Source of the DNA: Arenimonas sp.
GTDB lineage: Bacteria; Pseudomonadota; Gammaproteobacteria; Xanthomonadales; Xanthomonadaceae
Direction: 5' to 3'
Assembly: GCF_044353605.1 (NCBI RefSeq)
Contig: NZ_JBILBO010000008.1
Span: 3,706 to 67,705 of the forward strand
Length of the DNA stretch: 64,000 bases
A model generated the notes under the pieces. The model saw only the letters and a list, made by a program, of their open reading frames with translations, had not been told where the DNA came from and made no database searches. Shown piece by piece: positions 1 to 4,173 of this stretch. A program made the translations under genes and the position numbers. Within the stretch, counting starts at the first letter, position 1; every line of letters begins with the position of its first letter.

Positions 1-1080
1 CCGCCAATAAGACTGCACCCGCAGACCTTCGGCCAGTGCGCGGTAGTCGATGTATTGCCGGTGCCATTCACGGCGTTTGGCCACACTGTTGATGCCGATG
101 CCGGCCAGGAAGAACAGCAGGAAAAGGTAAATCATCACATCTTTGGCCATGATGTCCGAGTACATGATGAAGGCGTAACCCATCAGTGCAGCGAGGACGT
201 AAGTGGCGAGAAGGATGCGGCTAACGCGTCGCCGGTATGTCGTTGCGAGCCAATCGGCACCGCCGAAATAACATCCGATCGGACAATCGGTATCCCCCAG
301 GCTTCCGGCTTTTACGATTTCTTCGCGGTACTGTTTGCAATCGTGCTGGTATTCGATTTGCCGACGGAACATGGTGTTGAAGGAGTCCGGCATACTTTTG
401 GAGGGCTGTGCATCATCGCCCGAGATCAGCCAGCGGCATTTCTCGTTGATGTCGGTCTCACTGCTCTGGCGTCCGGCCGGAATGTGATACACCAGTGACT
501 CTTCGTCCAGTCCGAGATTGCCAATGGCGGTCTGCCGGCGGTCGATGGTGCCAGGCAGTGTTCCGTGGAGGTGGTATTCGACGACTTGGGCGGTGCCTCC
601 GAAGTGTCCGTTTTCCGATCCATCCCACAATGCCAGCAGGATATGACAGTGGCTTGAGGTGAACATGCCGGCAAGCGCATATTGTCTGTTGCGCGCGTAG
701 CCGCCATGGCGTATGTCGTCAGGACTCCGGAGGTCCTGAAACGCGAGTTCGAGGCAGGCGCTCAGCGAAAGCTGTCTGTCGAATTCGATCAGTTCGGCTG
801 GGTCGTCGAAATCGCTGCGGTAGAGCGTTGCCGGAACCGGCAGCGCGGCAATCACCCTGATGCCCATTTCGAGCGCGATGCCGGCTACCAGTTGATCGGC
901 TCCTGCCGCCAACGGGCACAAGACCGTCAGCGGCAACTCCGGATAATCCTGCCGCAGCTGGTCGAATAGTCCATGGACCTGCCTTTTCAGGCGCGGTAAT
1001 TCGGTCTCGCGCAGATTCCTATGCCCGGTCACGCCAATGACAAGGCCCGCAGTCTCCATGGGTTGATGTGTGTCAGCCAT
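1..1080 (-). CDS. SLOG-domain protein fused to SLATT-like transmembrane domain (3'-truncated by window edge)
   Basis: Manual translation from ATG at 1080 gives 360 codons with no stop: MADTHQPMETAGLVIGVTGHR...LAAGADQL...LLALWDG...GGTAQVV (SLOG motifs), then two hydrophobic helices and WHRQYIDYRALAEGLRVQ (SLATT-like). Absent from the ORF track. An alternative start is at 1059. Confidence 0.8.
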   Translation of the reverse strand, partial: MADTHQPMETAGLVIGVTGHRNLRETELPRLKRQVHGLFDQLRQDYPELPLTVLCPLAAGADQLVAGIALEMGIRVIAALPVPATLYRSDFDDPAELIEFDRQLSLSACLELAFQDLRSPDDIRHGGYARNRQYALAGMFTSSHCHILLALWDGSENGHFGGTAQVVEYHLHGTLPGTIDRRQTAIGNLGLDEESLVYHIPAGRQSSETDINEKCRWLISGDDAQPSKSMPDSFNTMFRRQIEYQHDCKQYREEIVKAGSLGDTDCPIGCYFGGADWLATTYRRRVSRILLATYVLAALMGYAFIMYSDIMAKDVMIYLFLLFFLAGIGINSVAKRREWHRQYIDYRALAEGLRVQSYWR

Positions 1081-1089
1081 GATCGGATA

Positions 1090-1500
1090 TTATTGGTTCA
1101 CAATCCGGGGATCGCATTTCAGAGTCTCCCCGGTTTGTTTGTTCCGAAGGTTTATTTGGTAATAGACATCCGCCGGGCCGGTGTTGGCATTGAAAATATT
1201 GAGCACGTTGCCGTTTCCGCCGGCCGTTTCTCTGATCTGATCCGAGCCCGGACCCGTGAATGTGGTCGGTTCGAAAACCATGTCATCACCATATAAAAGC
1301 TCGATCTGGATTTTCTTGCCACCTGTTTTCTGCATGACCTCGACGTTGCCGTAGCCATCCGTGCCGCCGCTGAACTGGCAGCCATTGATGTTGAGCTCGA
1401 CTTTGAAGTCCGGCGCATTGCCATTCTGTGCTGAGGTGCTGCTCGACACGGCAGCCATCGCCAAAGCGAGGACAAGGATTTGTGTTTGACTGATTCGCAT
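1090..1500 (-). CDS. Small secreted beta-rich protein ending CDPRIVNQ (DP-EP-like)
   Basis: ATG at 1500 follows an AAGGA RBS. Signal peptide MRISQTQILVLALAMAAVSSSTSA. Paralog of 1590-1928. The track start at 1584 is probably too long. Confidence 0.75.
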   Translation of the reverse strand: MRISQTQILVLALAMAAVSSSTSAQNGNAPDFKVELNINGCQFSGGTDGYGNVEVMQKTGGKKIQIELLYGDDMVFEPTTFTGPGSDQIRETAGGNGNVLNIFNANTGPADVYYQINLRNKQTGETLKCDPRIVNQ

Positions 1501-1589
1501 GTGTTGTCCTTGAGGTTTTGAGCAGGTTCTCAGGTCTGGGACGGCAGGGAATGAGCGGATTGCCAAAAAGCAGTCCGCAGTCATCCGAT

Positions 1590-1928
1590 TTATTTATTCA
1601 CGACCCGCGGATCGCAGAGTACATCGGGGCCTCCGTTCGAGTCGCCGACGATGACCGTATATTTGACATCGGCCGGTGTTCGGCAATTGTCGTCGATATC
1701 GACCCGGCGCTCATTGCCCTTGATGTCGAAGCTGAAATTTTCCAGGCCACTGCCTTGGAATTGGACATCCTTGATGAAGTAGTTCGATGCCGCATTCAGC
1801 GAGACGTGGATTTTCGACGGCCCCTGGCCGACCGAATTTTCGACATTGCCGTTGCCTTTGTTGCCGCCGGAATACTGGTAGCCGCCGTTCTGTACGGATA
1901 ATGAAACCTGCTGATCTGAGTTAGGCAT
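1590..1928 (-). CDS. Small beta-rich protein ending CDPRVVNK (DP-EP-like), no signal peptide
   Basis: AGGAG RBS; starts 1 nt after the upstream stop. Shares SGG..G.GNVE, PADV.Y and CDPR.VN with 1090-1500. Confidence 0.8.
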   Translation of the reverse strand: MPNSDQQVSLSVQNGGYQYSGGNKGNGNVENSVGQGPSKIHVSLNAASNYFIKDVQFQGSGLENFSFDIKGNERRVDIDDNCRTPADVKYTVIVGDSNGGPDVLCDPRVVNK

Positions 1929-1929
1929 C

Positions 1930-4041
1930 TTAGTTCTCCTTAGAGGGGGTGGTGGGTGAAGCCGATGAAACCAAAAAACCGGACTCGGTAGGATCCGGAA
2001 CGAAACGGGGGTCTTTGTAGCCGGCCTTAGACAATTCGGATTCGATTTCTTCCGCTTTTGCGGCTTGGCTGAGGCTGATTGCGATCAATCGTCGGATGGG
2101 ATTGAAATCAAAAATCCGGATGGTCTGGCTGTCCAGAAGCTTGGCTGTCTCGCGCCAGGTATTTTCCGCCTGGCTAGCCTGGCCATCGGCCATCTGCGCA
2201 GAACCAAGAATCAAGACCGATTTCGCCAATTCCGCGACAAGCAGGGGGGATTGGTCGGATTCTTTAAGCAGAGCGGTAACCAGGTTGCGGCTCGTTTCCG
2301 CAGAGATGATGGCTTCTTTGGTTCTACCGTTCTGGAGTATACGCAATGCTTTTTCACGATGCATTCCGGAAAGTATGATTTTATTTTTGGTATTTGAAGG
2401 GTCCTTCGAAATAAGTGTGTCTACTCGGCCAATCAAACCATCTAAATCAGCATCATGGCTGTTCGACCAGCCGCCACGGGGAGTCATCGACAGTCGAAGT
2501 AATTCGGCCTTGTACAGCACCTGAAGCCAATCGGCATTATTCGGATCCTTTTCAGTCAACATTGAAAGAATTCGCAGCGACTCCGCATTGAGGCGTGCGG
2601 CGGAGTCGACATCGCCGATATAGAGTTTTGCGTCGGTCTGGAAGGTCATGTTGGACGCAAAAGTAAAGGTTGCCCGCGCATTCTCATCTTTCAAGTAAAT
2701 CGGACGAAGCAGCTTGGCAATCTCGGTGAAGGCCTCATCGCTGCCGGAAAGATCACCAAGATCCATTTTGCTCGAGCCAATCCAGGACCAGGCTTCCGCA
2801 AGGCTGTAGGCAAGCTCGATGTCATCCGGGGTCTTGGCCAGTTCCTCGGCATTGATGTCGCGGCTGAGGATGAAGTTGTCGAGAGCGACGCGGGTGTTTC
2901 CGCGCGCGCGCGCCATACTGCCGAGATTGGAATACGCATAGGAAAGCTCCATGTTGTAGATCGAGTTTCCTGGGTCTCGTTCGAGGAGCTCACGGCTGTA
3001 CTGCATGTAATTCTTGAAAGCGTTTTCTGCGAGCTTCAGATCGCCACGCTCCCATGCGACATATCCGACCCAGAATTCAGCTTGTCCGAGCTCAAACAGA
3101 TTGTCATTGTTTTTAGGGTCGGCTTTGTAAAGGGCCTGCATCTGCTTGAGCGACTCTTCGAAGGCGATCAGTGCGGCCTTCAGGTCGCCTTTCGATTTGC
3201 GCACTTCGCCGATCTGATGCAGGGCCTTGCCGCGCTCGCGCAGTTCCTTGGGGGTGCCGCGGTCACCGAGCGTAGCGAAGTAATTCATGGCCTGATCGCC
3301 GATGGAGTCCAGGATTTCGAGTTTTCCGATGGGTTCAAGCCGTTCGCGCAGGTCGCCGAGCATGAAACCGATCAGGTTCTCGGCCTGGCTGCGGCGGATC
3401 TCTGACTCACGCTTGGCATTCAAGGCATAGACCGCCAGGCCGATAGTCAGCATCGCGATTAAGACCGCGCCGGCCGCCAGAATCGACCAGAACCGCGCCT
3501 GTCGCTGCGCGTCGCGGCGCTTGAGATCATCAACGCCGACATTCAGCAGGCCTGCCGCGATTTTGAGCATCGCATTGCGTTTGCCGTCACCGCTTGGAGT
3601 GGCATCGGCGGCCAAGGGCTCATGGATGATGTTGCCGTTTTCATCCTGTAGGATTGCGGCCGGAAAGGCACAGTGCGGGGATCGCGGATCCGGACTGCCG
3701 GCCGCCAGAAGACAAAAAATGCGGTCGCCACAGCCGGAGGCCCGGAAGCGGCGAATTTCCTCGTTGACCCAGTGCGAGGCACGTGCCGCCGGAGTACAGA
3801 TGACAATCAGCGCATCCGAGTCGTCCATGGCCTTGCGAATCGACTCGGACAGATCGCCGCCGGAGGCGAGTTCGTCACGGTCGCGGAAAATCGGGAAAAG
3901 TCGGGCGGGGAGATTCTGCTGGCTTTGACGCAGTGATTTCGGCAAGCGGTAGCCTTCCAGTGCACGCTGAAGCCAGCGCGCCCAAGCCTCGTCGCTGTGG
4001 CTGTAACTGATGAATGCCCTGTAATGCCGTTGAACCGCCAT
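1930..4041 (-). CDS. TIR domain - transmembrane helix - TPR-like repeat protein
   Basis: N-terminal AFISYSHSD, IFRDRDEL and SHWVNEEI (TIR motifs with catalytic-type Glu); hydrophobic FWSILAAGAVLIAMLTIGLAVYAL; long helical repeat C-terminus. Confidence 0.85.
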   Translation of the reverse strand: MAVQRHYRAFISYSHSDEAWARWLQRALEGYRLPKSLRQSQQNLPARLFPIFRDRDELASGGDLSESIRKAMDDSDALIVICTPAARASHWVNEEIRRFRASGCGDRIFCLLAAGSPDPRSPHCAFPAAILQDENGNIIHEPLAADATPSGDGKRNAMLKIAAGLLNVGVDDLKRRDAQRQARFWSILAAGAVLIAMLTIGLAVYALNAKRESEIRRSQAENLIGFMLGDLRERLEPIGKLEILDSIGDQAMNYFATLGDRGTPKELRERGKALHQIGEVRKSKGDLKAALIAFEESLKQMQALYKADPKNNDNLFELGQAEFWVGYVAWERGDLKLAENAFKNYMQYSRELLERDPGNSIYNMELSYAYSNLGSMARARGNTRVALDNFILSRDINAEELAKTPDDIELAYSLAEAWSWIGSSKMDLGDLSGSDEAFTEIAKLLRPIYLKDENARATFTFASNMTFQTDAKLYIGDVDSAARLNAESLRILSMLTEKDPNNADWLQVLYKAELLRLSMTPRGGWSNSHDADLDGLIGRVDTLISKDPSNTKNKIILSGMHREKALRILQNGRTKEAIISAETSRNLVTALLKESDQSPLLVAELAKSVLILGSAQMADGQASQAENTWRETAKLLDSQTIRIFDFNPIRRLIAISLSQAAKAEEIESELSKAGYKDPRFVPDPTESGFLVSSASPTTPSKEN

Positions 4042-4136
4042 GCCTTTTATCGTTCCCCTAGGCCCCCGTGCCTTGGCTAATACTACCCTTGAATCAAATG
4101 CTTGGGGCTGTATCAGGAATTATTCTTGAAAAGGGC

Positions 4137-4164
4137 TTGACAGACCGTTTTTTGTTAGTAGTAT
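4137..4164 (+). promoter_or_regulatory. Probable sigma70 promoter of lexA
   Basis: TTGACA (4137-4142), 16-nt spacer, TAGTAT (4159-4164). Confidence 0.6.
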
Positions 4165-4173
4165 TACTACTAA
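4155..4173. promoter_or_regulatory. LexA operator (Xanthomonas-type SOS box)
   Basis: Palindrome TTAGTAG-TATTA-CTACTAA overlapping the -10 element and the lexA start codon. Confidence 0.85.

Follow-up and report, generated by a model that had tools for sequence, protein, structure and literature searches.

Can a bacterial TIR signalling pathway have its sensor outside the cytoplasm? In characterised Thoeris systems, as described in a preprint (bioRxiv 10.64898/2025.12.03.692087), the TIR protein senses phage invasion and the effector acts inside the cell. The question is raised by four genes at the left end of a 64,000-nucleotide stretch of Arenimonas sp. DNA (the window; G000:C24:3706-67705, from a 2.0-Mb genome in 36 contigs with 55% GC). 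They encode a receptor-like protein with a TIR domain, a single transmembrane (TM) helix and a TPR solenoid, two small proteins and a SLOG-SLATT membrane protein. This wiring is well supported by comparative genomics, while chemistry and role are proposed by analogy. On balance, we favour reading the locus as a Thoeris-like module that signals through an NAD derivative and senses its cue with a single-pass membrane receptor. Sensing in a TIR pathway would then take place beyond the cytoplasm, in the layout of animal Toll-like receptors but with the polarity inverted.

Gene order and co-inheritance

The four genes lie on the minus strand within positions 1-4041 of the window and are spaced by 1, 89 and 9 nucleotides, both in the list of open reading frames (ORFs) and in the sequence itself, exactly as an initial annotation of the stretch had it when it proposed an undescribed signalling or immunity operon. 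Shine-Dalgarno sequences precede the genes of small proteins A (AAGGAG) and B (AAGGA).

1930..4041, minus strand: gene 1, receptor-like TIR-TM-TPR protein of 703 amino acids (aa), from the ORF, Pfam and 25 aligned homologs
1590..1928, minus strand: gene 2, small protein A, 112 aa, without a signal peptide, an SO1698/DUF1888-like beta-sandwich
1090..1500, minus strand: gene 3, small protein B, 136 aa, a paralog of A with an added signal peptide
1..1080, minus strand: gene 4, SLOG-2xSLATT protein, first 360 codons; it continues left to G000:C24:3094

The window edge truncates gene 4; with the sequence to the left retrieved, the gene is complete on the contig at 563 aa (L002:3094-4785).

Homologs of the receptor and of the SLOG-SLATT protein are inherited together. 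Among 301 genomes spread evenly over the order, gene 4 occurred in 91 and gene 1, counted by its N-terminal 262 residues (E up to 1e-15), in 92. Both were present in 77 genomes, gene 4 alone in 14, gene 1 alone in 15 and neither in 195 (odds ratio 71, Fisher p 2e-41, uncorrected for phylogeny), and in 51 genomes the two lay no more than 8 kb apart. Thirteen of the 14 genomes with gene 4 alone encode another TIR_2 protein of about 680-770 aa, which adjoins gene 4 in four of them and lies within 6 kb in four more. The initial annotation had named a lack of co-occurrence as grounds for giving up its interpretation; these counts clearly remove that objection.

A scan limited to one genome per species yielded 195 gene 4 relatives, of which 80, mostly from Lysobacterales, were kept. 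We cross-checked the gene counts of each locus with tblastn and motif scans, some ORF calls being wrong. A gene 1 homolog stands beside gene 4 in about 50 of the 80 loci (tblastn), in three orders or orientations: the TIR gene may be upstream of gene 4, downstream of it or divergent from it, and the link persists. Because the arrangement recurs across an order of bacteria, it is far from chance.

The small genes, recognised by a short conserved C-terminal tail motif, belong to the same neighbourhoods. Across 1.15 Mb of related loci, 51 ORFs end in this motif, and each has a TIR or SLOG gene no more than 1.2 kb away. Of the 45 loci whose TM-type TIR gene is complete, 34 have such an ORF, as do four more in which a contig end truncates that gene or it went undetected; among the rest, several show the motif as an HP or NA variant. 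In the 32 loci that lack a TM-type TIR gene there is none. It is the membrane TIR receptor, rather than the SLOG-SLATT gene, with which the small genes co-vary, and for that reason we rejected a toxin-antitoxin pairing of the small proteins with the pore. The copy number of receptors and small partners ranges from 1 to 4; some Dyella and Rhodanobacter loci (L066:3665-7873, L043, L046, L052 and L065) combine two TIR-TM-TPR genes and up to four genes with Asp-Pro or Asn-Pro tails with one SLOG-SLATT gene.

The receptor itself can be replaced. Relatives of gene 4 also stand beside soluble TIR-TPR, SIR2_2-TIR and nSTAND1-TM-TPR proteins, one nSTAND1 protein carrying a DUF4062 head. Two loci (L028:1-7884 and L080:1740-9746) show such alternative sensors, including two tandem soluble TIR-TPR genes, SIR2_2-TIR and nSTAND1-TM-TPR; among these alternative-sensor loci, a DUF4062-nSTAND1-TM-TPR gene is followed by one for an unannotated secreted protein of 736 aa. 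On a Caballeronia plasmid, a TIR gene and a WD40 gene come directly after a remote SLOG-DUF4231 gene.

Putative receptor, small partners and putative effector

The domain calls of the initial annotation for all four proteins are borne out by Pfam, Foldseek and family-level SLATT matches. Gene 1 divides as follows.

3622..4023, minus strand: TIR domain, about residues 7-140, predicted cytoplasmic (Pfam match at residues 10-110)
3757..3759, minus strand: codon of Glu95, at the TIR catalytic-Glu position (W91-V-N-E-E95), invariant in 25 homologs (E92 in alignment numbering)
3421..3486, minus strand: single TM helix, residues 186-207, the sole segment with a Kyte-Doolittle mean above 2, conserved in position
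1933..3399, minus strand: juxtamembrane motif AExLxxFMLGDL and TPR solenoid of about 480 aa, predicted periplasmic (FMLGDL invariant; TPR profile matches)
1933..2544, minus strand: fast-evolving C-terminal TPR segment, residues 500-703 (identity, dN/dS)

Residues 10-110 match the Pfam families TIR_2 (E 6e-14) and ThsB_TIR (E 4e-8), and TPR_2 and TPR_8 score barely above their cut-offs. The motifs AFxSYSHxD, FxDxxxL and SxWVxxE are invariant in the TIR domain across the 25 homologs. A phmmer search of the PDB with the single protein found no match, and the family profile retrieved solved TPR proteins only (E 4e-23 to 1e-8), so the TIR glutamate was examined by hhalign, which put Glu95 opposite the glutamate in the SRWTDAE motif of a type III Thoeris TIR (E 2.7e-5). 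The strongly hydrophobic stretch of the TM helix spans residues 186-204. Across the family, the flanks of the TM helix carry a mean net charge of +3.7 on the N-terminal side and +1.3 on the C-terminal side. By the positive-inside rule, the N-terminus is inside; the TIR domain should then be cytoplasmic and the TPR solenoid of about 480 aa periplasmic.

Small proteins A and B are paralogs, as initially annotated (32% identity, E 1e-14), and at its N-terminus B carries an additional MRISQTQILVLALAMAAVSSSTSA, absent from A.

1429..1500, minus strand: Sec-type signal peptide of B, residues 1-24 (MRISQTQILVLALAMAAVSSSTSA, then QN), read from the sequence
1608..1613, minus strand: Asp106-Pro107 of A, candidate self-cleavage bond with tail PRVVNK, aligned with the SO1698 tail
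1108..1113, minus strand: Asp130-Pro131 of B, candidate self-cleavage bond with tail PRIVNQ, the same motif as in A

The signal peptide of B is conserved in its closest relatives (L003, L005 and L006). The secreted partner described initially is supported for B but does not hold as a general trait, as most small partners in relatives lack a signal peptide: about 12% of the small-protein representatives have a Sec or lipoprotein signal peptide. Two exported representatives were looked up; one (L083) directly follows a TIR-TM-TPR gene, and the other (L084) follows a C-terminal fragment that was not domain-scanned. On the latter, a forest-soil contig, a lipoprotein-type DP-tail protein is followed by a Sec-secreted paralog (L084:613-1413), so that both are exported there.

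No family was assigned to A, B and five relatives by Pfam and NCBIfam at E up to 0.1-1, PADLOC matched neither A nor B, and the labels DUF2846, PepA and kinase inhibitor were discarded as chance-level Pfam or NCBIfam matches. The fold was more informative. An AlphaFold2 model of A built from 19 homologs (pLDDT 85) had SO1698 of Shewanella oneidensis as its best Foldseek match in the PDB (12 entries, E down to 4e-7, TM-score 0.78), and the family profile matches SO1698 by sequence as well (E 6e-5). A carries CDPRVVNK and B ends in KCDPRIVNQ, both aligning with DPQIINRP of SO1698, whose tail SPDPQIINRP corresponds to C-D-P-x-I-x-N-x-P in the family. The SO1698 entries (3N55, 3NJF-3NJN) were deposited as 'aspartic peptidase' of family DUF1888, with a mutant series (D116A, P117A and others) that marks the site Asp116-Pro117. 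SO1698 reportedly cuts itself at the Asp-Pro bond and then self-assembles. By profile and model, A and B are distant homologs of this self-cleaving DUF1888 protein, a link that is new here.

The tail is the constant element of the family. P107 and N111 (A numbering) are invariant in the family alignment, and [DN]-P-x-x-x-N tails, the Asp or Asn being followed by 6 or 8 residues, were present in 119 of 120 word-index homologs. An exhaustive profile search gave 398 clusters at 50% identity, all named hypothetical; C-D-P-x-[IV]-x-N occurs in 126 of the 145 top (short) representatives, and most of the 19 others are a longer-tailed CDP/CHP variant. By analogy with SO1698, the small proteins probably process their own tails at Asp-Pro. 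A role as co-sensor, ligand or assembly factor is suggested by their association with TM-type receptors and by an invariant, putatively cleavable tail; this is the weakest part of our interpretation. A search of BFVD folds with A gave generic Ig-like matches only (TM-score up to 0.55) and no phage mimic.

Gene 4 encodes the presumed effector, with two features inside the window.

481..1044, minus strand: YpsA-like SLOG domain, about residues 13-200 (Foldseek and invariant motifs)
1..282, minus strand: first SLATT-type module with two TM helices, from residue 267 (sub-threshold Pfam match, helix pair in the model)

No Pfam or NCBIfam model matches the N-terminal 200 residues, and PDB sequence searches with the protein and its profile gave nothing useful; the fold search alone was informative. 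The AlphaFold2 model, from 36 homologs (pLDDT 80, pTM 0.83), has two long helix pairs at residues 267-337 and 427-496. In Foldseek its head matched members of the SLOG superfamily: YpsA (2nx2; TM-score on the target 0.60), DprA, ShosA and LOG-type proteins with probability 1.00, and TRPM N-terminal domains besides. GVTGHR, HCH, WDG and GGT (G161-G162-T163) are invariant in the 36-homolog alignment, and a linker, DYRALAEGLRVQ...FAHDNFLQKQD.ELGWIRN, is strongly conserved.

The membrane part matches SLATT families below threshold: DUF4231 and SLATT_3 at residues 272-357 and SLATT_1 at residues 427-550, with scores against cut-offs of 21.7/26.3 bits for SLATT_1, 21.7/24.7 for DUF4231 and 31.9/41 for NCBIfam SLATT_1. 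Scanned singly at E up to 1e-3, the 36 relatives matched DUF4231 in 27 cases, SLATT_3 in 10 and SLATT_1 in 7, and on the strength of these matches the SLATT assignment is supported at the family level. The second SLATT-type module (residues 427-554) lies outside the window. As modelled, gene 4 is a SLOG head followed by two SLATT-type hairpins, with four TM helices in total; the SLOG-SLATT effector of the initial annotation is supported in both its domains and is amended from one SLATT module to two. Homologs of gene 4 form more than 3,596 clusters, annotated as hypothetical or DUF4231.

Possible function and its alternatives

We propose that an envelope cue (phage contact or injection, damage, or a ligand involving a small partner) would shift the oligomeric state of a receptor with its TIR domain in the cytoplasm and its TPR domain in the periplasm. 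Clustered TIR domains would cleave NAD+ and release an ADP-ribose-derived messenger, which the SLOG head of gene 4 would bind; the SLATT modules might then open or assemble in the inner membrane, with depolarisation, growth arrest or aborted infection as the outcome. The small proteins may process their own tails at Asp-Pro and serve the receptor as co-sensor, ligand or assembly factor, one copy (A) being cytoplasmic and the other (B) exported to the TPR side in this lineage. There is precedent for the central step: TIR-made 3'cADPR (an isomer of cyclic ADP-ribose, cADPR) binds the SLOG domain of ThsA, according to the preprint (bioRxiv 10.64898/2025.12.03.692087), and the YpsA-like SLOG clade includes cADPR sensors (PMC9503650). 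From such precedent we infer every step beyond the domain assignments, namely NADase activity, messenger, SLOG binding and pore opening; the initial interpretation is in this sense partly supported, with defence as a candidate role.

Several observations weigh against this reading. Some freshwater Arenimonas carry a 62%-identical gene 4 beside housekeeping genes, patatin or DsbD, with no TIR nearby. In two complete or near-complete genomes of one family (G028 and G114, family f6), genes 1 and 4 are unlinked, 0.5-2.8 Mb apart; co-occurrence therefore outlasts the loss of linkage. The amylase gene and lexA-recA surroundings are no obvious defence island, no effector homolog was found in the phage collection, and plasmid copies are remote only. 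Gene 4 identity declines in step with taxonomy, and its inheritance looks largely vertical for that reason. Most small partners, A included, lack a signal peptide though the TPR domain is predicted to be periplasmic. PADLOC finds no system, giving weak TIR matches (E 4e-7 to 2e-2) and nothing for genes 2-4, and NCBIfam yields no known Thoeris effector, with ThcB4 at 31 bits against a cut-off of 220. Two operons of the 'SLOG and 4TM' class, from Streptomyces and Nitrospira, failed to protect E. coli in the preprint (bioRxiv 10.64898/2025.12.03.692087).

The leading alternative is that the same wiring serves housekeeping signalling about the envelope or environment, with SLATT as a regulated channel and not a suicide pore. 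We regard it as rather unlikely. In its favour, the sensor is predicted to face the periplasm; the locus is chromosomal, conserved in position among close relatives and adjacent to lexA-recA; phage copies and close plasmid copies are absent; identity tracks taxonomy; 'SLOG and 4TM' operons did not protect E. coli; and the module is retained in a streamlined 2.0-Mb genome. Set against this, the distribution is patchy (91 of the 301 genomes; for gene 4, 36 of 87 genera and 3 of 6 genomes of its own genus), the genes that flank the cassette differ among species of one genus, the nSTAND1, SIR2-TIR and extra TIR-TPR partners are typical of conflict systems, receptors and small partners vary from 1 to 4 copies, and the sensor surface evolves fast.

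That surface, in the C-terminal TPR region, and the small proteins change fastest. Homologs of the TPR domain share a mean pairwise identity of 31%, against 58% in the TIR domain and 57-60% in the TM and juxtamembrane part; the figure is 52% in gene 4 and 28% in the small proteins. Among close relatives, gene 1 is 94-100% identical over its first 100 residues, 80-92% over residues 101-200 and 98-100% over residues 201-300, and the last 200 residues of the TPR domain are 48-82% identical. The ratio of non-synonymous to synonymous substitution rates (dN/dS) is 0.23-0.29 for the C-terminal TPR segment and 0.03-0.17 for all other segments and genes. Such rates are in keeping with diversifying or relaxed selection on a sensor surface, without proving an arms race. 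In L003:1-820, compared with window 1590-2400, dS rises to 1.25 in the TPR C-terminus and 0.75 in gene A, three to four times the value of the flanks at about 0.26-0.36. This suggests that a recombination tract swapped the sensor end along with gene A; since the two stretches are neighbours in the DNA, the tract is silent on any interaction between TPR and A.

A more elaborate possibility, to which we give a small chance, is an outside-in TIR pathway in which self-cut B, or its tail, engages the hypervariable periplasmic TPR domain, the receptor clusters, and its cytoplasmic TIR domain makes an NAD-derived messenger that opens a SLOG-gated SLATT pore. In outline it resembles Toll and its cleaved ligand Spaetzle. 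Cytoplasmic A would then be a second, inside-facing input or a brake, and the counterpart of exported B in other lineages would be a lipoprotein. The ligand itself might be the tail P-x-[IV]-x-N, which self-cleavage at Asp-Pro would free or expose for binding by the periplasmic TPR domain, a role that we likewise consider doubtful; the small proteins might instead scaffold or inhibit the TIR domain from within the cytoplasm. Short peptides are common ligands of TPR domains, B is exported in its own lineage as are about 12% of representatives, nothing but the tail is invariant in an otherwise fast-evolving protein, and small partners follow TM-type receptors only. Yet most partners, A among them, have no signal peptide, the tail residues are missing from the deposited sequence of the solved wild-type SO1698 chains, their release in vivo is not known to us, and an invariant tail facing a hypervariable TPR surface is unlike a co-evolving ligand pair.

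Least probable, in our view, is that the TIR domain is itself an NAD+-depleting effector, with SLOG-SLATT a parallel or independent effector or a SLOG enzyme: many bacterial TIRs do deplete NAD+ as effectors (bioRxiv 10.64898/2025.12.03.692087), some genomes have SLOG-SLATT genes without a nearby TIR, and the invariant His-Cys-His and Thr-Gly-His-Arg motifs of SLOG could be catalytic, but a TIR protein accompanies gene 4 almost universally (77 + 13 of 91 genomes), the best fold match is the YpsA-like clade with its cADPR-sensing members (PMC9503650), and a pore-type module with a sensor-type head is the usual layout of an effector.

The cassette is flanked by mutS, cinA and an alpha-amylase gene on one side and by lexA-recA-recX-alaS on the other. 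A palindrome, TTAGTAGTATTACTACTAA, at window 4155-4173 overlaps the -10 region and the ATG of lexA, within a 131-bp divergent region common to lexA and the TIR operon. We take this palindrome to be a Xanthomonadales-type LexA box. The start of lexA is probably the ATG at 4173 (MNISD...), and the longer GTG-started ORF at 4068 is probably not the true start. SOS control of the cassette was considered on account of the LexA-type box in the divergent intergenic region, but rejected, the lexA neighbourhood being confined to close relatives. The closest public relatives of the genome are freshwater Arenimonas-like metagenome-assembled genomes. At 100% estimated completeness it measures 2.0 Mb, against 2.6-6.4 Mb for relatives in the order, and it nevertheless keeps the 5.7-kb cassette.

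The cassette is common, occurring in about 30% of genomes in the order, and its parts, in thousands of protein clusters, are annotated as hypothetical or DUF. If the Thoeris-like reading is true, it would show to what a TIR receptor facing the periplasm responds, give DUF1888-type self-cleaving proteins a biological role and account for the 'SLOG and 4TM' effector class, which failed in heterologous tests. To our knowledge, the only studied member of the SO1698 family cuts itself. With a small genome, a compact operon and one cytoplasmic and one exported partner copy, the locus in the window is a good test case.

Relation to known systems

We know of no link between SO1698 and TIR receptors. 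A and B share with SO1698 the beta-sandwich fold, the Asp-Pro bond and the short conserved C-terminal tail; they differ in a conserved Cys before the Asp, in Asn-Pro in place of Asp-Pro in Rhodanobacteraceae members, and in going unrecognised by the curated Pfam and NCBIfam models. For the membrane proteins, SLATT and SLOG predictions were reportedly published by Burroughs et al. in 2015. These predictions and the account of membrane STAND and TIR-TPR conflict systems by Kaur, Burroughs, Iyer and Aravind (2020; PMC7159879) share with our locus a SLATT predicted to be a nucleotide-gated pore beside a TIR domain, and in loci related to ours an nSTAND1-TM-TPR protein replaces the TIR receptor. 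The combination of TIR-TM-TPR receptor, DP-tail protein and SLOG-2xSLATT protein is undescribed in the literature searched.

Two general traits of Thoeris are present, namely a TIR domain with Glu at the catalytic position and a linked putative effector gene with a SLOG-fold domain. Types I (ThsB TIR and ThsA SIR2-SLOG) and III (several TIRs and a SLOG effector) resemble the predicted layout of the cassette in pairing a TIR writer with a SLOG reader, and its TIR domain weakly matches the ThsB_TIR and ThcB4 models; here, however, the predicted output is SLATT, not SIR2, and the TIR is anchored in the membrane.

Closer still is a putative, unvalidated class of Thoeris effectors, 'SLOG and 4TM' or '4TM SLOG', in the preprint's Tables S1 and S2 (bioRxiv 10.64898/2025.12.03.692087). 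In layout the two agree, with a SLOG domain, four TM helices and an adjacent TIR gene, whereas the listed Streptomyces TIR is only marginally similar to the gene 1 profile (hhalign probability 0.5%, E 0.11). The searched text of the preprint mentions no membrane TIR, TPR or small partner, and the searched part of its supplement does not contain the motifs of the gene 1 TIR subfamily. Of the initial claim that the arrangement is undescribed, the absence of a full match stands, whereas the pairing of TIR with 'SLOG and 4TM' is already listed there as a putative Thoeris type.

Thoeris type VII is a validated system of ThsB TIR and SLATT effector ThsH, with canonical cADPR as its signal (bioRxiv 10.64898/2025.12.03.692087). 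The cassette resembles it in that a TIR gene stands beside a putative SLATT-type membrane effector and a TIR-made ADP-ribose derivative is predicted to activate the protein that breaches the membrane. In the cassette the TIR heads a single-pass receptor with a predicted periplasmic TPR part of about 480 aa; the TIR sequences in the preprint's tables are domain extracts of about 130 aa. It differs from type VII in that the effector adds a YpsA-like SLOG head and has two SLATT-type modules, and in the one or two SO1698-like small genes of the cassette. With weak TIR matches in PADLOC and sub-threshold matches in NCBIfam, no named system matches the cassette in full, as the initial annotation had supposed, and its nearest counterparts are Thoeris type VII and the 'SLOG and 4TM' class.

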